A stretch of 33,844 bases of DNA, from IMG/VR virus record IMGVR_UViG_3300029042_000248; one strand, written 5' to 3'. Made by a program: the position numbers and the translations under genes. Within the stretch, counting starts at the first letter, position 1. Each line of letters starts with the position of its first letter. This document shows positions 17,403 to 33,844 of the stretch, in pieces. The notes beneath the pieces are model-generated. The model saw only the letters and a program-made list of their open reading frames with translations, was not told the origin of the DNA and did no database searches. Source of the DNA: a virus (Duplodnaviria > Heunggongvirae > Uroviricota > Caudoviricetes).

Positions 17403-17714
17403 ATGAGTGAAAAAGCAGGAACCAAAGGCGCGAAAGCCGCAAAGAACGGCGCAGCACAGGAAAACCCGGCACCGCTGGCAGACGTTATTGTGGCTGACGG
17501 TCAGGCGAATGAACCACGTCCGGCTGAAGACCCGGTTACTGTACAGGGTGACGCCCCTGTCCGGCTGAACGTCCGGGCCGTGTCTGAAAACGGGTTCTGG
17601 CGCTGTGGCCGTTTCTGGTCACATGCCGGTGAGGATGTGGCGGTGAGCGCTGCGGTTGCCACCCGCCTGATGGCAGAGCCGAATCTGATTGTCCGGGAAG
17701 CGGAGAAAGGCTGA
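17403..17714 (+). CDS. Hypothetical head-associated protein, Mu gp35 position (103 aa)
   Basis: ORF after major head gene; Ala/Pro-rich N-terminus. Confidence 0.5.
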   Translation: MSEKAGTKGAKAAKNGAAQENPAPLADVIVADGQANEPRPAEDPVTVQGDAPVRLNVRAVSENGFWRCGRFWSHAGEDVAVSAAVATRLMAEPNLIVREAEKG

Positions 17715-18151
17715 TGGGGTACATCACGCAGGAAGACCTGTTACGCGCAGACGGCAATCTTGTCTGGAACATGGCGATTAACCGGGAAACCAACGGACTG
17801 GATGAAGACAAAATCCGTCAGGCCATCAGTGATGCCGAAGCGGAAATTGATTCGTTTCTGTCCCGCCGCTACCAGCTGCCGCTGGGGGTGACGGAAATCC
17901 CGCGCCCGCTGCAACGCGTGGCGGTATCGCTGGCGTTTTACTGGTTGTCAGAGCGTGACAATCAAATCACGGAGCTGATCCAGAAACGCTACGACGACGC
18001 CATTAAAACCCTGCGTGAGATGGCGAACGGCACCCGTGACCTGGGACTGCCGACGTATGCCACCCCGGCAGAAACCGACCACGGGAAAATCATTGTGGTG
18101 GGTGCCAATGCCCGGCTGTTCACCCGTAACAACCTGAAAGGGGTGCTGTGA
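17714..18151 (+). CDS. Head-tail joining / head completion protein, Mu gp36-like (145 aa)
   Basis: Position and size; coupled to neighbours. Confidence 0.5.
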   Translation: MGYITQEDLLRADGNLVWNMAINRETNGLDEDKIRQAISDAEAEIDSFLSRRYQLPLGVTEIPRPLQRVAVSLAFYWLSERDNQITELIQKRYDDAIKTLREMANGTRDLGLPTYATPAETDHGKIIVVGANARLFTRNNLKGVL

Positions 18152-18693
18152 TGGGGATTTCTGTACAGGTCAGCGGTGACCAGCGGCTGGAGGATATCCG
18201 CCGCGCCGTTGAAAAGCTGGCAGATGGTTCATTGCAGGCAGAGCTGCTGGAGAGCATCGGTGCGGTGGTGGAATCACAGACCCGCCGCCGCATCATCGAT
18301 GAGAAAACCAGTCCGGGTGGCGAACGCTGGCCGGACTGGTCTGACGGGTACAAAAAGACCCGCCACGGCAACCAGAGTCTGCTGCGTGGTGAAGGCCATC
18401 TGCTGGAGAGTATCCAGTACATCGTGGAAAACCGCGTGGTGCGTATCGGTTCACCGCTGGATTATGCCCGCATCATGAATGACGGCTTTTCCGGCAGTGT
18501 GCCGGTCAGCGCCCACAAACGACTTATCTCGCAGTGTTTCGGGCGGGCGCTGAAATATCCGGTCTGGCAGACCGTCGGCGCACATAACCGCATGATGAAC
18601 ATTCCACAACGTGAATTTCTGGGGCTGTCTTCTGCCAATCAGCAGGAGCTGCAACAGGTTATCAGTCATTTCTGGAAGGAGGTTCTGCCATGA
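18148..18693 (+). CDS. Virion morphogenesis / tail completion protein (181 aa)
   Basis: Position between head and sheath genes; family assignment tentative. Confidence 0.5.
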   Translation: MMGISVQVSGDQRLEDIRRAVEKLADGSLQAELLESIGAVVESQTRRRIIDEKTSPGGERWPDWSDGYKKTRHGNQSLLRGEGHLLESIQYIVENRVVRIGSPLDYARIMNDGFSGSVPVSAHKRLISQCFGRALKYPVWQTVGAHNRMMNIPQREFLGLSSANQQELQQVISHFWKEVLP

Positions 18694-21705: not shown

Positions 21706-21805
21706 CCTGTCCCAGCGATTCAGCATTCAGTACCTGGAACAGCTGCCCCTGCGGCAGCTGTTCCGCCTGATAAAGCAACTGGAGAAACAGCATGGCAACA
21801 GGTAA
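21668..21805 (+). CDS. Overlapping ORF in a different frame between chaperone and tape measure: possible frameshift extension (G/GT-like) or separate small gene
   Basis: Open frame 21596-21805 overlaps the chaperone 3' end and ends inside the tape-measure start; internal ATG at 21668. Confidence 0.3.
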   Translation: MPLAAALMNLLVNLSQRFSIQYLEQLPLRQLFRLIKQLEKQHGNR

Positions 21806-23648
21806 CCGTCTCAGCACGGAAATCACGATCAACCTTGCCGGGAACCTGACCGCCAAAGCCCGGCAGTACGGCGCAAATATGTCGCAGTTCGCCCGGAACC
21901 ATCAGAAGGCCATGCGCCTTGTCAAAGCCACAACGGAGGCCGCAGGACGCGGCCTTGATACGCTGGGCAACCGCTACACGGCAATGATAGCCGGGCTTGG
22001 CAGTAGCCTAACCATCAAACAGGTTGCCGATTTTGATGCGCAGATGCGCCGGATGGGTACGGATGCCCAGTTAACCACTGAACAGGTAAAGACGCTTCAC
22101 GACAAAATCAGGGATGTATCGAACCAGAAAGATATTCGTATTGATGCTTCTGCGCTTGGTCAGGGGGCCAGCGAACTTCTGGGGAAAACCGGTGATTATC
22201 AGTATGTGGTGGACAACCTCCGCAACATGGGGTTGATGATGCAGGCGTTCGGTGTTGACGGACAGGTTGCAGCCGGGCTGATGGCGCAGTTCTGGGAAAA
22301 AAACGTCCGGGGCGCTGATGCGGTCAGTAACATGATGGACAGGCTGTATTCGCAGTTCGCAGTGGGGTCTGTAAGCGTTGCCGATGTTGCCCGCGCTGCC
22401 CCGAAACTGTTTTCCATCATTCAGGATCAGGGACCGGAAGCCATTGCCCAGATGGGGGCATTTGCTCAGGTGTTCGCCAAAAACAAAGGCAGCATTGATG
22501 AAACGGTAACCAGTATTCAGGCCATGTATGCTTCCCTGTCGGACAAAAAGAACATCGAGTTCCTGAAAAAAAACGGCATTGACGTTTTTGTCAAAGGCAC
22601 AAAAGACATCAAAAAGCCCTATGAGCTGATGATGGAAATCCTTAAACGGGCCAAATACGACCCGCTGAAACTTCAGGATGTGTTTGATCTGACCGGAATG
22701 CAGGGGATTAAGGCGCTGCTCAACCCTGAAAACCGGCAACTGATGGAACAAATGATTTACGGCACGATTGATCTGGGTTCCACGCAAAAGGCCGCACAGA
22801 CCAATGCCGAAGGCTTTAATGCTGCAATGCAATCACTGAATAACGAATGGCAACGTTTTGCTGAAGGACAGCTGGCAAAGCCCGTTCAGGACCTGGCGGA
22901 TGCGCTCAACAGCGTGGACCAGAACACTGTCCAGAACTGGTTGCAGGTCGGTAAATATATGGCGATTGCGCTGGGTGGCATTATCGCCATCAGAAAGACG
23001 TATCAGTTCGGTAAAACCATCCACGACATCATGAATCCCAAAGGGAAAGGCAAAGGGATACCCGGTGGCATTACGGATGTTTTCGGCTCCGGCGTGATGC
23101 CGGTTTATGTGGTTAATATGGGCAGTGGCGGAATGAATGGTAATACCGGCGGTCTGCCGGATACACCGGATTCATCGCGCAATCCCCATAACCCACGCAA
23201 TCCACGAGGTTCGGGTAACCGTGGAGGAAAGGCAGGTAAAGGCGCTGGCATCATTGCCGGTGCTCTGGAGTTTTACGATTTTCTGACCACGCAATATGCC
23301 CTGCCGGGTGAGGTTCACAGTCTCACTAAATCCGTTGCCGGTGATGCCAGCGCCAGCCCGTGGGAGCGCGAGTTCGCACAACAAAGCCAGGACAACCAGA
23401 AAGCACTGGAATCCGTCTGGCGTAAGGTAACAGACTGGTTCAATTCGCTTGGTGATAAGAACATTGCCGACCCGCGACCGTGGGCAGGTATGCAACCCAC
23501 ACAGAATTATCCTTTCCTTCCGCAGCAGTTGCAGGGGGAAATCCGTGTGGTGGTGGAAGGTGACGCCCGCGTGAAAAGTGTCAGAGTGGATCAACCCGGC
23601 GTCAGACTCAGTGCGCAGGCTGGCGTCACCAGCGTGGAGCAAGGGTAA
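21792..23648 (+). CDS. Y: Tail tape measure protein (618 aa)
   Basis: Longest tail-region ORF after the chaperone; Gly-rich segment near the C-terminus. Confidence 0.85.
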   Translation: MATGNRLSTEITINLAGNLTAKARQYGANMSQFARNHQKAMRLVKATTEAAGRGLDTLGNRYTAMIAGLGSSLTIKQVADFDAQMRRMGTDAQLTTEQVKTLHDKIRDVSNQKDIRIDASALGQGASELLGKTGDYQYVVDNLRNMGLMMQAFGVDGQVAAGLMAQFWEKNVRGADAVSNMMDRLYSQFAVGSVSVADVARAAPKLFSIIQDQGPEAIAQMGAFAQVFAKNKGSIDETVTSIQAMYASLSDKKNIEFLKKNGIDVFVKGTKDIKKPYELMMEILKRAKYDPLKLQDVFDLTGMQGIKALLNPENRQLMEQMIYGTIDLGSTQKAAQTNAEGFNAAMQSLNNEWQRFAEGQLAKPVQDLADALNSVDQNTVQNWLQVGKYMAIALGGIIAIRKTYQFGKTIHDIMNPKGKGKGIPGGITDVFGSGVMPVYVVNMGSGGMNGNTGGLPDTPDSSRNPHNPRNPRGSGNRGGKAGKGAGIIAGALEFYDFLTTQYALPGEVHSLTKSVAGDASASPWEREFAQQSQDNQKALESVWRKVTDWFNSLGDKNIADPRPWAGMQPTQNYPFLPQQLQGEIRVVVEGDARVKSVRVDQPGVRLSAQAGVTSVEQG

Positions 23649-26968: not shown

Positions 26969-28034
26969 AATCCCCACGCTGGGCAAACTGATTGCCGACG
27001 GCGAAAAAGATATTGCGTATGAACTCGGCCTGCAAAAGCTGCCGCCTGTCAGTGTTGAGCAGGCGCTGAATGTGTCATTCAGCAGTCAGGTCCGGGATTT
27101 ATACGACCATCAGAGCTGGATCAAGGACCAGATAATTCCGTCCACTACGTCTGATGATGAAACCATTATCAAAACAGCAACGTATGAAGGGGTTATCCGC
27201 AAGCAGGCCACCTTTGCCAGCGGGCCGGTGACCTTCACCAGTCAGTCCCCCATTCCGACAGAAACCCGGATGCAGTCCGACACGAATCAGGTGTATCAGG
27301 TACTCACATCCGGCGAGGTACAGGACGGCGAGGTCACTGTCATCGTGCAGGCTGAAGAAGCCGGTGTGGCGGGCAATCTTGCTGCCGGTGCCGTGCTGAC
27401 CCTGTTATCCCCGCTACCCGGAACGGGCAGCACAGGCGCGGTGACTGAAAGTGGCATCACCGGTGGCGCAGACATCGAATCCATCGCAGAGCTGCTGGAC
27501 CGTCTGCTGTATGTGCGCCGCAATCCCCCGGTGGGCGGTGCACTGCATGATTACGTCATCTGGGCGCGTGAAGTGCCGGGTGTCAGCCGCGCGTGGGCAT
27601 GGGATGCGTGGCACGGCCCCGGCACAGTCGGGCTGGCATGGCTTTATGATGACCGTGAAGACATTATCCCCACACGGGACGACCTGAAGACAATGGAGCA
27701 GTATCTGTTCTGTCACAAACACCCTGCCACGGGCGTTATGGTGGGCAAACCGGGCGGCATCGAGGTCTGGCCGGTACAGGTCAGACTGAAGAAACTCGAC
27801 CTGTCCATCCGTCTGACACCGGACAGCCAGTCGAACAGGAACGCCGTCCGGGCAAACCTGACCGCATTACAGAAAACGCTGGCCCCCGGTCAGATGCTGC
27901 CGGTGTCCTCGCTGCGCACGGCCATCGGTATGACGTCCGGCATCGCGGACTACTTCCTGAACATCGGGGAAGACACTACCAGTGATGTGGATGAGCTTAT
28001 CACCATCGGGGAGGTGACATGGCTCACAGCGTGA
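26958..28034 (+). CDS. Baseplate J-like protein, Mu gp47-like (358 aa)
   Basis: Position and size. Confidence 0.75.
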   Translation: MPYEIPTLGKLIADGEKDIAYELGLQKLPPVSVEQALNVSFSSQVRDLYDHQSWIKDQIIPSTTSDDETIIKTATYEGVIRKQATFASGPVTFTSQSPIPTETRMQSDTNQVYQVLTSGEVQDGEVTVIVQAEEAGVAGNLAAGAVLTLLSPLPGTGSTGAVTESGITGGADIESIAELLDRLLYVRRNPPVGGALHDYVIWAREVPGVSRAWAWDAWHGPGTVGLAWLYDDREDIIPTRDDLKTMEQYLFCHKHPATGVMVGKPGGIEVWPVQVRLKKLDLSIRLTPDSQSNRNAVRANLTALQKTLAPGQMLPVSSLRTAIGMTSGIADYFLNIGEDTTSDVDELITIGEVTWLTA

Positions 28035-28603
28035 CGGAATGGCTGACCGCACTGCAACAGGTCATGCCACGGGGTAAGGCATGGCCGCGTGATAACGACG
28101 CGGATTTAAACCGCTTTTTAAGGGCGCTTGCAGAGCGTTTAACCCGTGTTGAATACGACGCCTCGCGTCTGCATGTGGAGATGCGACCGGAAACCACGCT
28201 CCAGCTGCTGCCGGAGTGGGAGCAATATCTGGCGCTACCGGAATGCGGAATTGCCGCCGCCACAACGGAAGCCCGCCGCCGGGCCGTGGTGGAGAAATAC
28301 CGCCGCAAAGGCGGGCTGGCAACCTGGCAGATTGAAGCCGCTGCGGCGGCGCTGGGCTTCACCATAAAGGTGACGGCTGTTCTGCCGCACCACTGTCTGC
28401 GCGACTGTATGTATCCGCTGCATCCGGCCCGGTATCGCTGGCTGCTGAAAGTGGAAGTCCCGGACAACGATGCCGGACGGTTTACCTGTATTGATGACGT
28501 CATGACGCCATTAATCAGCGAACGGACCCGCGAGCTGGAATGCCTGCTGAAGCATTACCGGCTGGCGGGCACGGAATATGAATATTATTACACCGGAGAA
28601 TAA
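28019..28603 (+). CDS. Tail/baseplate protein, Mu gp48 / P2 gpI-like (194 aa)
   Basis: Position between baseplate J and fibre. Confidence 0.7.
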   Translation: MAHSVTEWLTALQQVMPRGKAWPRDNDADLNRFLRALAERLTRVEYDASRLHVEMRPETTLQLLPEWEQYLALPECGIAAATTEARRRAVVEKYRRKGGLATWQIEAAAAALGFTIKVTAVLPHHCLRDCMYPLHPARYRWLLKVEVPDNDAGRFTCIDDVMTPLISERTRELECLLKHYRLAGTEYEYYYTGE

Positions 28604-28606
28604 TTT

Positions 28607-29602
28607 ATGTTTCATGTGGATAATCCGACGGGTGTGCCGGTGATGCCACCTGTCGCGGCTGAATTAAGCAAAACAACGCTTTATTTTACCGAAGGCGGGA
28701 ACGGTATTCCGCCCACTTATCCGGGGCCGGACTGGTTTAATATTATTCAGTCTGAACTGCTGGAAATTCTCCGGCAGGCAAATATCAAACCGGATAAAAA
28801 TACCACCAACCAGATTATGACGGCGCTGAAAAAACTGTTTATTACGAACAGTGGTTCAGCCGGTGCTATTGCCGGATTAACCGGTCAGAATAATACGTTC
28901 CCGTATTTTACGGGCGAAGACACAATGGCATTAACGCCGCTCAGTGCTTTTGTGCGCAGTATTCTCGGGAAAACCACAGCCAGCGAATTTATTAAAGCAA
29001 TTGGCCTGTCACCGGACACCCTTTTATCAAAAGGACGGATGACGGCATTAAGCGGCACAGCTCAGGGCAATGCAGGGCTGCAGATGTATGAAGCGTACAA
29101 CAACGGCTACCCCACCACTTATGGCAATGTTCTGCACCTGAAAGGCGCGACAGCATCAGGCGAAGGTGAACTGCTGATTGGCTGGAGTGGTACGAGTGGA
29201 GCGCATGCCCCTGTTTATATCCGTTCAAGACGTGATTCTGCAGATGCCAGCTGGTCCGAATGGGCACAGGTGTATACATCAAAAGACAGCTTCAACGCAG
29301 CAACCGCTACAAAACTACAGACCCCCCGCAAAATTAACGGCACGGCATTTGATGGCACCAGCGATATCACCATCAGCAGCACCGATTCCGGCGCTGTGCG
29401 TGATTTCAGATACACCAGCGAAGTGTTTCACAATCCCGGTGGTAACGAAATTTCCTGGGTATTTCGCGCGCCTTCAGGTTGTATTTTGTCAGGTATTAAC
29501 GTTCAGGAAACTGGCAGAAACTCTGCGGATAACATCGGCGGCGTGTATTACAAACAAACCCAGATTTATATCAATGGCGGATGGCGCACGGTATCCGGCT
29601 AA
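28607..29602 (+). CDS. Tail fibre protein, Mu S-type N-terminus (331 aa)
   Basis: N-terminus MFHVDNPTGVPVMPP...PDWFNIIQSELLEIL...PDKNTTNQIMTAL typical of Mu-like fibre anchors; C-terminus ...IYINGGWRTVSG resembles the P2 H C-terminus. Confidence 0.75.
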   Translation: MFHVDNPTGVPVMPPVAAELSKTTLYFTEGGNGIPPTYPGPDWFNIIQSELLEILRQANIKPDKNTTNQIMTALKKLFITNSGSAGAIAGLTGQNNTFPYFTGEDTMALTPLSAFVRSILGKTTASEFIKAIGLSPDTLLSKGRMTALSGTAQGNAGLQMYEAYNNGYPTTYGNVLHLKGATASGEGELLIGWSGTSGAHAPVYIRSRRDSADASWSEWAQVYTSKDSFNAATATKLQTPRKINGTAFDGTSDITISSTDSGAVRDFRYTSEVFHNPGGNEISWVFRAPSGCILSGINVQETGRNSADNIGGVYYKQTQIYINGGWRTVSG

Positions 29603-29616
29603 TTAAGGAGAAAATA

Positions 29617-30147
29617 ATGGAACTCAGAAACGTCACGCGTTATTACCCGGAAGAGATGCCTTATGGTGAAAACATTCAGTATTTCCGCAGTGAAGACGGA
29701 CAGGATTTTTATGAATCACTGGATAAATTCACGAAGAAATACAAATTATGTATTCACCCGGAAACCGGCGTGATTTATTCGATGGCGGAAGACGTGTCCC
29801 GTCTTTATCCGGCTGGCTTCACCATTGTGGAAGTGGACGAGCTGCCGGAAGGTTTTGGCATTGAAGCCAGCTGGTATTACCAGGACGGCGAAGTGCTGCC
29901 TGTTCCTGTTGATTATTCGCAACTGGCAGAAAAACAACGTCAGCGCCTGCTGAATGAAGCAAAAGACATCACCTCCGACTGGAAAACCGAGCTGGAGCTG
30001 GGCACCATCAGCGACGATGACAAAGTCCGTCTTACGCAGTGGATGGCATATATCAAAGCGGTAAAGGCACTGGATTTAAGCACCGTTACTGACGAAGCCT
30101 CCTTTTATTCCATCAACTGGCCGGAGCGTCCCGATGCCGCAGCTTAA
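29617..30147 (+). CDS. Tail fibre assembly chaperone, Mu U / P2 G-like (176 aa from ATG 29617)
   Basis: AAGGAG RBS 29605-29610 with 6-nt spacer; small acidic protein after fibre gene; the track start at 29581 overlaps the fibre gene and lacks an RBS. Confidence 0.7.
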   Translation: MELRNVTRYYPEEMPYGENIQYFRSEDGQDFYESLDKFTKKYKLCIHPETGVIYSMAEDVSRLYPAGFTIVEVDELPEGFGIEASWYYQDGEVLPVPVDYSQLAEKQRQRLLNEAKDITSDWKTELELGTISDDDKVRLTQWMAYIKAVKALDLSTVTDEASFYSINWPERPDAAA

Positions 30148-33100
30148 AGGTGTGATTAAAACGCCCACGGGAGAACCGCTGGGCGGCGCAACTATTACAC
30201 TGACCTCCCTGCACAACCGTGCAGGGATTCTGAAAAGTGTTTTCAGCCACGTCACCACACAGAGCGGGGAGTATGACTTCCCCGTTCTGCCGGGTGTGTA
30301 CAGCGTTCGCCTGACACAAAGCACACAGCGCCTTTCAGAAATCGGTGTCATCCGCGTTTATGAAGATTCAGCGGATGGTTCGCTGAATGATTTTCTGGGC
30401 GCAACCGATATTGACCTGCGCCCGGAAGCCCTGAAGAAATTCGAAGAGCTGGCGCAACAGGCGCAGCAAAGCGCAGAAAAAGCAGGAGAGCACGCGGACG
30501 CTGCTGAACAAGCCCGCCAGGATACAGAAACGCTCGCCGGGGAAATACAGCAGGATGCAGAAGAAATTGCGGGTAATGTGCAGAAAGCTGAAAAGCTGGC
30601 CTCTGAAACCAACCAGAATGCCGCCCGCGCAGAGCAGGCCGTCAAGGATGCCGATAAGATAGTCCAGAAAGCGGTCGATAAACTCGGTGAAGCTGCAACG
30701 CTGACCGGCGAGGCAAAAGCCAGCGCCGAAGCGGCAGCCAAAAGCGAGCAGAACGCGAAACAGCACAGGGACGAGGCGCAACGGATAGTTGATGACCTGA
30801 AGGGAAGCAATGCTTCCACGACAGAAAAAGGCCTGGTGCAACTCTGTAGTGATACAGACAACGACAGCGAAGAACTGGCAGCCACACCAAAGGCTGTCAA
30901 AACCGTCATGGACGAGACGAAAACAAAAGCGCCACTGGACAGCCCGGCGTTCACCGGCACGCCAACCACACCAACCCCACCGGACGATGCAGTCGGTCTG
31001 GAAACCGCGAACGCGGCATTTGTTCGCAAACTGCTCGCCGCACTGGTTGACTCGTCACCGGAAGCCCTGGACACGCTGAACGAACTGGCAGCGGCGCTGG
31101 GCAATGACCCGGAGTTTGCGACAACAATCATGAACGCGCTGGCAGGTAAACAACCACTCAGCGACGTGTTAACCGCAATCAGTAATCTGGAAGAACGGGC
31201 AGATAATCTTCTGTGCTTTAATCAGGACGGAAATGCTTCACTGTCTCCGCTGTCAGAAAAAGCCCGGTCACTGCTGGCACAGGCCACAGTGGAAGCCATG
31301 CGCAATGAGCTTGAGCTGAAAAGCGCAGCGGTAAAGGACATTCAGACAGACCTTTACGACAGCTCGGAAGGTCGCGTTGCGCTGCCTGGTGCATTTGGTT
31401 ACGGAATGACGGACGCCGGAGCGAGTTCAATCATTGCCAGCGATATGGCGACTGTAGCCAGAACTGCGCACAACCTGCACCCGGGACGGTATTACACCTT
31501 TTCCACACAAACGGAAGAAACAACCGGAATAACAGAAATTATCTGGCTGGATAATGGCTGGGGCGACAAAACAAGCCAGACATCAACAAAGCTGGTTCTG
31601 TTTTTTGGAAAAGACGGACGGATTCTTATGACCGTCCGTGGCGATAATATCTCCGCCCCGGTCACCTGGACGAATCTGACGCCACAACTTGGCAATGCAG
31701 CACAGAAGGATGCACAGGAGAATATTTACGACCGCACCGAAGGCCGACTGGCGATTCCAGGCATGTTCGGATTCGGGAAAATATTTTCACCTGATGATGT
31801 GGTCCGGTTTAATTCAGAAGCTGATTTATTGAGGTGGGCAAAACAGGTCACACCGGGTGAATATTTTGTAAATGGTTCCTCCGGCATTCTTCCTGGCGTC
31901 GTTTTCCAGGGAATGATTCGCATCCGCTTCCTGGAAGCTAACCGGACTACACCGAACCCTCCATATACGGCAAAAGCCATTATTTTCTACGGTGTTAACG
32001 GTGATATTTATTATAACCGTTACTGGTCCACAGGTGATGGATGGTTAACTGGCTGGATAAACCTGAAGGTCAATGAGGCTTCACTCAGGGCACTGATTGA
32101 AACCCGTGCACCACTGAACAGCCCGGCATTGACCGGAACGCCGTCCACGCCAACACCGCCGGATGATGCAGCAGGTAATGAAATAGCCAATGCGGAGTTT
32201 GTCCGCAAACTGCTCGCTGCGCTGGTTGACTCATCACCGGAAGCCCTGGACACACTGAACGAGCTGGCAGCGGCGCTGGGTAATGACCCGAACTTTGCGA
32301 CGACAATCACAAACGCGCTGGCAGGCAAACAGCCGCTTAATGACGTGTTAACAGCGGTCGGTCAGATTACGCCGAGGAAAAATTCACTTTTGTATTACAA
32401 CGAAAGCGGGAATCTGACACTGACGGACCTGACAGGGCGAGCGAAGTCGCTTCTTGGTCTGGGAACATATGAGAAGATGCGTGCGTTGCTGGAATTAAAA
32501 GCTGCCGCAACAATGGACCCCCAGAGCGATATCCGTGACCGCACACCCGGCAGGCTGGCGCTACCGGGCGCTTTTGGCTTTGGTAAGGCATTCAGTAACA
32601 CAGAAGCCCTGACATTTAACGGGCAGGCCGATTTTGCTGAATGGCTGAAAGAGGTCACGCCGGGGCGTTATGCGGTCAGTATTGCGGCCTCTTCCACGCT
32701 GCTGACTGGCACAACGAAATTTAACGGCATCATTGATGTGATGTGGTCGCCCTTTGATAACGACGAATCAGACGCAATACGCAAATTCAAGACGGCGGTG
32801 TTTTACAACCAGTATTACGAAGGTGAACACAGTATTCATCGTCTGACTTACCGCTGGAGTGGAAACAACTGGAATGCAACAGTAAGCCCCGTCGTTTACG
32901 ACGGCGATTCGCTGGCGTTCTTTCTGGCGGGGACAGCAGGCAATGGTCCGTCCTCTTATTACAAATACCCGGCAGTTGGCTCTCTTCTTCTCGCGGTCTA
33001 TCAGGGAACAGCAGCAGGCGATAAGGCAATCAAAATTGGTCTGGGGGATATCGTACCGGGTTCGCGGCTGGGGCCGGTCGCGATGAGTTGCACAATCAAT

Positions 33101-33247
33101 GATGCCGGGTCGTATGTTTCATCTCCCCAGGTTAATGTTGGCGGAGCCGGTGCATACAATTTCCCGGGGCGTTATCAGGCTTTGTCTGGTACGCGTGTTA
33201 CATATGGTGATAGAGGATTCCTTTGCCTGTTCGTGCGCATTGAGTAA
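30134..33247 (+). CDS. Long side-tail-fibre protein, lambda Stf-like (1037 aa) with duplicated collar and three receptor-binding-like domains
   Basis: N-terminus and collar resemble lambda Stf from memory (VYEDSADGSLNDFL; GLVQL...LAATPKAVKTVMDET; DALNTLNELAAALGNDP..ATT..NALAGKQP); Ala/Glu/Lys-rich coiled coil; starts 14 nt inside the preceding gene. Confidence 0.8.
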   Translation: MPQLKGVIKTPTGEPLGGATITLTSLHNRAGILKSVFSHVTTQSGEYDFPVLPGVYSVRLTQSTQRLSEIGVIRVYEDSADGSLNDFLGATDIDLRPEALKKFEELAQQAQQSAEKAGEHADAAEQARQDTETLAGEIQQDAEEIAGNVQKAEKLASETNQNAARAEQAVKDADKIVQKAVDKLGEAATLTGEAKASAEAAAKSEQNAKQHRDEAQRIVDDLKGSNASTTEKGLVQLCSDTDNDSEELAATPKAVKTVMDETKTKAPLDSPAFTGTPTTPTPPDDAVGLETANAAFVRKLLAALVDSSPEALDTLNELAAALGNDPEFATTIMNALAGKQPLSDVLTAISNLEERADNLLCFNQDGNASLSPLSEKARSLLAQATVEAMRNELELKSAAVKDIQTDLYDSSEGRVALPGAFGYGMTDAGASSIIASDMATVARTAHNLHPGRYYTFSTQTEETTGITEIIWLDNGWGDKTSQTSTKLVLFFGKDGRILMTVRGDNISAPVTWTNLTPQLGNAAQKDAQENIYDRTEGRLAIPGMFGFGKIFSPDDVVRFNSEADLLRWAKQVTPGEYFVNGSSGILPGVVFQGMIRIRFLEANRTTPNPPYTAKAIIFYGVNGDIYYNRYWSTGDGWLTGWINLKVNEASLRALIETRAPLNSPALTGTPSTPTPPDDAAGNEIANAEFVRKLLAALVDSSPEALDTLNELAAALGNDPNFATTITNALAGKQPLNDVLTAVGQITPRKNSLLYYNESGNLTLTDLTGRAKSLLGLGTYEKMRALLELKAAATMDPQSDIRDRTPGRLALPGAFGFGKAFSNTEALTFNGQADFAEWLKEVTPGRYAVSIAASSTLLTGTTKFNGIIDVMWSPFDNDESDAIRKFKTAVFYNQYYEGEHSIHRLTYRWSGNNWNATVSPVVYDGDSLAFFLAGTAGNGPSSYYKYPAVGSLLLAVYQGTAAGDKAIKIGLGDIVPGSRLGPVAMSCTINDAGSYVSSPQVNVGGAGAYNFPGRYQALSGTRVTYGDRGFLCLFVRIE
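30931..31178 (+). repeat. Collar repeat copy 1 inside the Stf-like gene
   Basis: ~250 nt encoding APLDSPAFTGTPTTPTPPDD...ALAGKQPLSDVLTA; near-identical to 32108-32355. Confidence 0.75.
32108..32355 (+). repeat. Collar repeat copy 2 inside the Stf-like gene
   Basis: Encodes APLNSPALTGTPSTPTPPDD...ALAGKQPLNDVLTA; core nucleotide identity roughly 90% or more by eye. Confidence 0.75.
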
Positions 33248-33260
33248 TGAGGAAATAAGG

Positions 33261-33844
33261 CATGAAAATCAGAGCGGTAAAGGGCATCAGAAACGCCCAT
33301 TATCTCGAAAATGGTGCGGTTGACTGCGAGGTGTTATTTGAAGGTGAAAGGGAATTCGTCCCGTATACCGCCATGCAGGATGATACCGCAATGACAGGCC
33401 AGCGCATCTGGNNNNNNNNNNNNNNNNNNNNNNGGTGAAATCGCCCCGTTCACCGTCACGCCTGAACTTATCGCAGCGGCAAAAGATGCCAAAAAGATGG
33501 AAATCGAGGCGTGGCGCACAGAACAGGAAGCGCAGCCGTTCACGTTCGAATGGAACGGACACACCTGGAACGCCGGCCCCGACTCACTCGCCCGTCTTTA
33601 TCCGGCAGTAATGGCATCAAAGTCTGACACAGCGCGAAAAACCATGGTATGGGGCGATGCGGAAAACCAGCAGGTGAAACTGTCGATGCAGAAACTGGAT
33701 GAGCTGCTTACTGCAATGGTGCAGGCACAGGTCGATCGCAACGATGAGATTTATCGTCTCCAGCGAGAGATGAAGCAAGAGCTGAATAACATGGAGGATT
33801 TGGTTTCAATCAGGAAACTGGTCGTTAGCCCAGAAAAAACTTGA
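33261..33844 (+). CDS. Second tail-fibre chaperone-like gene, interrupted by a 22-nt N run (33412-33433)
   Basis: ATG 33261 with upstream GAGGAAATAAGG; continues after the N run in the frame of track ORF 33497-33844, ending exactly at the window end; frame across the gap is unverifiable. Confidence 0.4.

Follow-up and report, generated by a model that had tools for sequence, protein, structure and literature searches.

Two co-oriented tail fibre modules with unrelated anchors in a Mu-like prophage: a case for dual display in the place of the G segment

The IMG/VR virus record IMGVR_UViG_3300029042_000248 (Duplodnaviria; Heunggongvirae; Uroviricota; Caudoviricetes), a stretch of 33,844 nucleotides (nt) that is referred to here as the window, is a nearly complete Mu-like transposable prophage of Escherichia coli which carries two tail fibre genes in tandem on the + strand, each followed by a chaperone or chaperone-like gene. 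We consider it reasonably probable that the virion displays both fibres at once at separate sites, with the second fibre probably at the neck, and that no switch is needed. A preliminary description of this DNA had proposed that the particle may carry two receptor-binding fibres or choose between them. Carrying both agrees with the N-terminal anchors, as these are unrelated and the fibres need not compete for one site; for choosing, no mechanism was found.

The fibre genes follow gp48/YmfQ (28019-28603, + strand; PF10076, 110.9 bits), a baseplate wedge gene whose product is the expected docking partner of fibre 1, and the open reading frame (ORF) map shows an uninterrupted run of + strand genes from there to the end of the window. 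Fibre 1 (28607-29602; 331 amino acids, aa) starts 4 nt past the gp48 stop, matches PHROG 1833 (tail fibre, E-value 3e-113) and is an S-type baseplate fibre of mosaic make-up. Next comes a tail fibre assembly gene of the Mu U/lambda Tfa type, here called Tfa (29617-30147; 176 aa; PF02413 Caudo_TAP, 76.9 bits against a cut-off of 22.1), with AAGGAG 5' of its ATG at 29617. Fibre 2 (30134-33247; 1037 aa) is Stf-like, matching PF08400 (90.9 bits; gathering score 26.6), PF03406 (58.1 bits) and PHROG 2636 (E-value 1e-246). Its ATG at 30134, with GGAG 9 nt upstream, lies before the Tfa TAA at 30145-30147, and these codon positions give the 14-nt overlap that had first been noted. The last gene (33262-33844; PF14301 DUF4376, 54.3 bits against a cut-off of 25) has its stop at the window end. 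All four reading frames being present with Pfam or PHROG support, the original account of two complete fibre/chaperone modules on one strand, comprising a first chaperone, a lambda Stf-like second fibre and a second chaperone-like gene, stands. A promoter and terminator scan found no signal above shuffled controls between the modules, and there is no intergenic gap. The four genes would extend the late tail operon, with fibre 2 probably translationally coupled to the Tfa gene.

Fibre 1 consists of a conserved anchor (aa 1-125) and a variable shaft and tip (aa 126-331). Residues 1-118 share 37.5% identity with the constant region of Mu S, and residues 1-81 match the Mu S chains of PDB entries 5YVQ and 9KI1 (E-value 8e-21). 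The label "Mu S-type" given to this fibre is accurate for the N-terminus only, since the tip is P2 H-like and residues 263-331 match the short tail fibre 9CUY (E-value 1.6e-14). Among relatives the N-terminus is conserved (78-99%) and the C-terminus swapped, and the N-terminal half of Tfa, a protein that matches Mu U (5YVQ_B, E-value 2.5e-15), co-varies with the fibre 1 tip. Fibre 1 has the sequence-level features of an S/Tfa-type fibre, namely an anchor homologous to Mu gp49 right after gp48 and a Caudo_TAP gene immediately 3'. In the cryo-electron microscopy structure of Mu, the S fibre N-terminus is anchored on the docking loop of gp48 (residues 133-155) and there are six trimeric fibres (PMC11915804). 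By analogy with that structure, we infer that fibre 1 docks on the gp48 loop, giving six baseplate fibres which would be folded and capped by Tfa. Between gp48 and fibre 1, some relatives have an insertion of ~1.3-1.5 kb (L010 10062-12160, L023 2052-3509, L044 10255-11498). The L010 insert comprises a gp48 lengthened to 324 aa and a 352-aa protein with no Pfam match, and in L044 an interrupted fibre 1 N-terminus is also duplicated in part.

The anchor of fibre 2 is of a different kind. This protein is built from a collar domain, a coiled coil, two shaft-motif repeats and a variable tip, and the Mu S N-terminus is absent from it. Its N-terminal ~180 residues (aa 3-183) match the collar spike gp40 of Vibrio phage XM1 (7KJK; phmmer E-value 2e-10), and the N-domain of Ur-lambda Stf is also matched (9E7M; phmmer E-value 3.6e-9). 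A search for homologues with the collar domain (aa 1-100, 30134-30433) returned only close and mostly truncated enterobacterial entries, and the AlphaFold2 alignment was shallow as a result. The model of residues 1-135 contains six strands (from residues 3-7 through 65-75) followed by helices, and the top Foldseek matches to it in the PDB are 9E7M (E-value 1.6e-6), 7KJK (E-value 9.4e-6), 9D93 (the tail-tip collar fibres of Bxb1) and 8KEG (the neck fibre of cyanophage A-1(L)). Fibre 2 accordingly has the sequence and fold features of a Stf-type collar fibre: PF08400 above the cut-off, and a beta-sandwich plus helix matching solved collar domains.

Structures of these homologues suggest where such a domain could sit. 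In the siphoviruses Ur-lambda and Bxb1, such domains encircle the tail tube; in Ur-lambda, the four trimeric fibres are borne by twelve Stf collar domains that surround the gpV/gpM junction (PMC12617516). In XM1, six gp40 trimers attach to gp4 and gp5 of the neck (PDB 7KJK). The PF08400 collar domains of fibre 2 would likewise assemble as a ring round a hexameric tube-like ring. Because the sheath covers the tube of a contractile tail, the likeliest exposed ring is the neck, formed by the tail terminator and adaptor, and the collar ring is most probably exposed there, as in XM1 and A-1(L). Putative genes for these two proteins lie at 18148-18693 (terminator) and 17714-18151 (adaptor). A preprint has drawn the same homology-based neck placement for another fibre (bioRxiv 10.1101/2024.10.28.620165).

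A rather unlikely alternative is that both fibres are on the virion with fibre 2 at or near the baseplate, or branching from fibre 1 or Tfa, in a manner resembling the long and short fibres of T4 or the branched fibres of DT57C and G7C. The fibre 2 gene does lie inside the baseplate/fibre operon, coupled to Tfa, its tip is shared by exchange with side tail fibres that need to reach the outer membrane, the collar is near the tail tip in lambda and Bxb1, and a fibre-Tfa-fibre set in Jilinvirus HeidiAbel has been read as lateral and short baseplate fibres (PMC11990801). Against this, the myovirus tube is hidden under the sheath, and both solved myovirus homologues of the collar domain are located at the neck. 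Furthermore, each wedge of Mu has a single fibre docking loop, and the anchor that matches it belongs to fibre 1. The collar (96-99%) also does not co-vary with the Tfa C-terminus (45-98%).

Several points weigh against co-display with fibre 2 at the neck. Co-display is deduced here from the genes, and the neck placement is based on just two myovirus precedents. When three neck-region proteins were searched against the PDB, no similarity to XM1 gp4 or gp5 was found, and only the adaptor Mu gpJ was matched. A tail length of ~90 nm is expected from the 618-aa tape measure, and a neck-mounted fibre with a Stf-type tip may be unable to reach the cell surface. The collar model is of moderate confidence only (predicted local distance difference test score, pLDDT, 70.6). 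Finally, fibre 2 is truncated or pseudogenised in some relatives (L010, L023, RM11911 and STEC346). In L010 (13502-14113) and L023 (4850-5461) it is cut to approximately the collar domain, DUF4376 is lost and com comes directly next. Fibre 2 is dispensable at least for prophage maintenance, and resident prophages can lose the second module.

The same truncations lend some weight to the idea that the second module is passenger DNA from other prophages, which is never assembled into the Mu-like particle or serves as a mere recombination reservoir. So does the distal part of fibre 2, as its shaft and tip, together with DUF4376, are 85-91% identical to the Rac-SA53 and Escherichia coli W prophages. 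We nonetheless regard this as improbable in view of how the module varies. In 25 of 26 lineage loci the collar domain shows 91-99% identity, on par with sheath, tube and baseplate proteins, and its neighbours are far more variable (Tfa 23-98%, fibre 2 aa 101-135 55-100%). Compared with the collars of lambdoid phages, phiP27 and Rac-SA53, identity is only ~40%, which indicates that the domain is lineage-specific and adapted to this virion and not a recent import. When collar alleles were compared with neck and baseplate proteins for co-variation, the whole backbone was seen to be at least 93% identical. Three prophages that are 98.5% identical to the window (L046, L047 and L048, the last from GCA_028250215.1) each lie beside different, unrelated host genes downstream of mom (~14200 onward), suggesting recent Mu-type transposition with both modules intact, and the 1037-aa ORF is uninterrupted at all three insertion sites. 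All 36-37 amino-acid differences between their fibre 2 proteins and that of the window are at residue 795 or beyond, and variation confined to the tip in this way (aa 795-1037, 32516-33247), like the overlapping and coupled start of fibre 2, is not what would be anticipated of a passenger. Such a pattern, in which the anchor is conserved while tip and chaperone are exchanged, is typical of functional receptor-binding proteins.

The fibre 2 shaft carries a direct repeat of 255 nt (copy 1 at 30929-31183, copy 2 at 32108-32362), which contains the conserved shaft motif and is also seen at the protein level. The copies are 83% identical, 1179 nt apart and in frame. The protein is made up of duplicated shaft-motif/domain units, with three "...GR.A.PG.FG.G" domains, and relatives have fibre 2 proteins of 535, 755 or 1037 aa, a length that unequal recombination may alter. 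An exact-sequence look-up with the fibre 2 protein of the window found no identical entry on record. The tip is presumed to be folded by DUF4376, a family known to act as tail fibre chaperone only in Alteromonas phages V22 and A5 (PMC10579305). It is on this precedent, and on its position directly downstream of fibre 2 in all relatives in which it is present, that we take DUF4376 to be the fibre 2 chaperone.

In Mu, alternative fibres are produced by inversion of the G segment, and none of the three defining features of a Gin/Hin/Cin/Pin invertible segment (an invertase gene, a crossover pair, and a tip and chaperone on the opposite strand) was found here. A tblastn search with Mu Gin had no match in the window or in more than 40 related loci, with only Mu itself being recovered. 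In a scan with the gix repeat from the Mu record and with hixL, the best matches in the window had 8-13 mismatches, no better than shuffled sequence, and a repeat search found no inverted repeats longer than 20 nt in the window. The fibre modules are co-oriented on the + strand in every relative with enough sequence (~25), as would hardly be expected of a segment that inverts. These results bear out the initial observation that a reverse-strand fibre pair and a gix-like site are lacking. The window alone is insufficient to judge the absence of gin, since com-mom and the right end of the prophage are trimmed from it; its first base is a reverse-strand stop and base 33844 is the DUF4376 stop, both ends being exact gene boundaries. 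It had been advised to look past this end for gin and gix, and the 98.5%-identical prophages run from fibre 2 (1037 aa) through DUF4376 (191 aa) and com-mom into host genes with no gin. In an alignment with Mu, homology resumes 13 nt past the DUF4376 stop, at a point that in Mu lies 27 nt short of the gin stop. The Mu block Sv-U-U'-S'-gin, where Sv is the variable S tip, has on this evidence been replaced by the fibre 1 tip, Tfa, fibre 2 and DUF4376.

A cryptic switch, in which a foreign or host invertase, deletion between the 255-nt repeats or regulated expression would pick one fibre, is in our view very improbable. The in-frame repeats could delete 393 aa, and the length variation of fibre 2 among relatives would be compatible with such events; however, a deletion of this kind retains the tip, so that specificity would not be switched. 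The remaining routes meet the negative results described above: a gix/hix-like site, a long inverted repeat, a Gin homologue and internal promoter or terminator signals were all not found, and one orientation prevails throughout ~25 assemblies. Under the favoured reading, that both fibres are carried, host range would be diversified via recombinational exchange of both tips and their chaperones and not by DNA inversion.

The only N run in the window, at 33412-33433 inside the DUF4376 gene, had raised the concern that sequence beyond ~30.1 kb is an assembly join to another prophage. The resemblance of fibre 2 to fibres of other prophages might also be read in this way. This concern has been refuted. 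The identical Tfa/fibre 2 junction (~30.1 kb) recurs in many independent assemblies, among them complete genomes, IMG/VR contigs and metagenomes, including a human-gut metagenome contig with 100% identity to the window over 11.7 kb spanning the junction. In relatives, DUF4376 is a continuous 191-aa ORF in which the missing 24 nt are GAAGAGTTACAGAGCGGCAAATGG; in the window, 22 N stand in their place. As the length of the run is off by 2 nt, a false frame break results and the ORF call is split into 33262-33438 and 33497-33844. Both flanks match PHROG 1141 at consecutive profile positions (2-50 and 59-190). Since the 22 N replace 24 nt within one gene that is collinear with its relatives, the frame break is only apparent. 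The N run was also considered as a concealed crossover site or join and rejected, as it replaces an ordinary 24-nt coding stretch. A mis-join has a negligible probability and can be excluded; the layout is a trait of the lineage.

The window aligns collinearly, at 88-98% identity, with a prophage of E. coli ETEC1732 (NZ_CP122823) that interrupts flhA and has genes for a repressor, transposase, Gam, Mor, Mu-type head proteins and a sheath. Of 5426 complete E. coli genomes, 49 carry the gp47-gp48 backbone of this lineage, and the exact fibre 1 protein is present on 23 contigs. Across annotated examples and 32 IMG/VR loci, all that are long enough show the order gp48-fibre 1-Tfa-fibre 2, and most continue with DUF4376-com-mom. 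A gp48 scan of genome contigs found two Raoultella loci only, both cut short. Within the lineage, the tape measure protein (21792-23648 in the window) is a local variability hotspot within a conserved tail module: its identity ranges from 46 to 99% in relatives that share 93% or more in their other tail proteins. A distant Mu-like lineage (L033, L035, L036, L037 and L041), with gp48 ~60% identical, also has two tandem + strand fibre genes, at ~10585 and ~12235. Both start with a Mu S-type N-terminus (251 aa, with PF07484 Phage Tail Collar, and 790 aa), a 294-aa Caudo_TAP protein lies between them, and Gin was not found in these loci. Judged by their shared anchor, these two fibres would be rivals for a single gp48 site.

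Among known systems, the Mu G segment region shares the gp43-gp48 backbone, the S-type N-terminal anchor, the Caudo_TAP chaperone and com-mom directly downstream, whereas gin, gix and the inverted U'-S' pair are replaced here by a co-oriented second fibre with an unrelated collar anchor and DUF4376. Fibre 2 resembles Ur-lambda Stf (9E7M; PMC12617516) in its PF08400 collar (36% identity; Foldseek E-value 1.6e-6, TM-score 0.78 on the target) and in the linker, coiled coil and conserved shaft motif that come after it. In contrast to Ur-lambda, fibre 2 belongs to a myovirus, which has a sheath and exposes no gpV/gpM junction; it is paired with DUF4376 and not Tfa, and it is longer and internally duplicated. 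XM1 gp40 (7KJK) and the A-1(L) neck fibre (8KEG) have the homologous N-terminal beta-sandwich anchor and belong to simple contractile phages. However, their neck proteins have no detectable sequence similarity to those encoded here, and the XM1 gene lies away from the baseplate fibre genes.

The closest parallels in layout are phiP27 (L54-L57), an Stx2e phage, Rac-SA53 (tail1-tail4) and the E. coli W prophage (WFL_RS07695-07710). In each, a fibre gene, a Caudo_TAP gene, a PF08400 fibre gene and DUF4376 follow the baseplate J (gp47-type) and gp48-type genes in the same orientation, with the module at the prophage end. They differ in their non-transposable backbones, in their collars (~40% identical) and in fibre lengths (460/1061 aa and 332/490 aa). 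Two fibre sets have also been described in small myoviruses such as Jilinvirus HeidiAbel (gp15-gp17) and Wifcevirus (PMC11990801), which share the fibre-Tfa-fibre order in a ~40-kb myovirus genome. The second HeidiAbel fibre has a T4 gp37-like tip, is read as a short baseplate fibre and has no reported collar-domain anchor, and the authors state that the relationship between the two fibre sets is unknown (PMC11990801). The four-gene arrangement is a recurrent super-module already in published genomes and only moderately unusual, and the novelty that the preliminary description implied was overstated. The useful additions made here are the argument from distinct anchors and the possible neck placement.

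Mu-type phages are evidently not bound to G-segment inversion for breadth of host range, given that a prophage lineage common in E. coli has genes for two fibres with different anchors. Analysis of the anchors offers a concrete placement for Stf-like fibres on contractile phages and would explain the trading of tips and chaperones between siphovirus side fibres and myovirus fibres. It is also of use in predicting host range, in engineering dual-specificity Mu-like particles or tailocins, and in annotating genes labelled "prophage tail fiber N-terminal domain". As a tentative generalisation, a lineage of Mu-like myoviruses, together with those of the phiP27/Rac-SA53 type, may mount Stf-type side fibres on the neck via a virion-specific collar domain. 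If this is true, these phages would have a two-tier adsorption apparatus of neck and baseplate fibres, in which constitutive dual display has replaced Gin-based bet-hedging, and a link would exist between the pools of receptor-tip genes that serve siphovirus side fibres and myovirus neck fibres.

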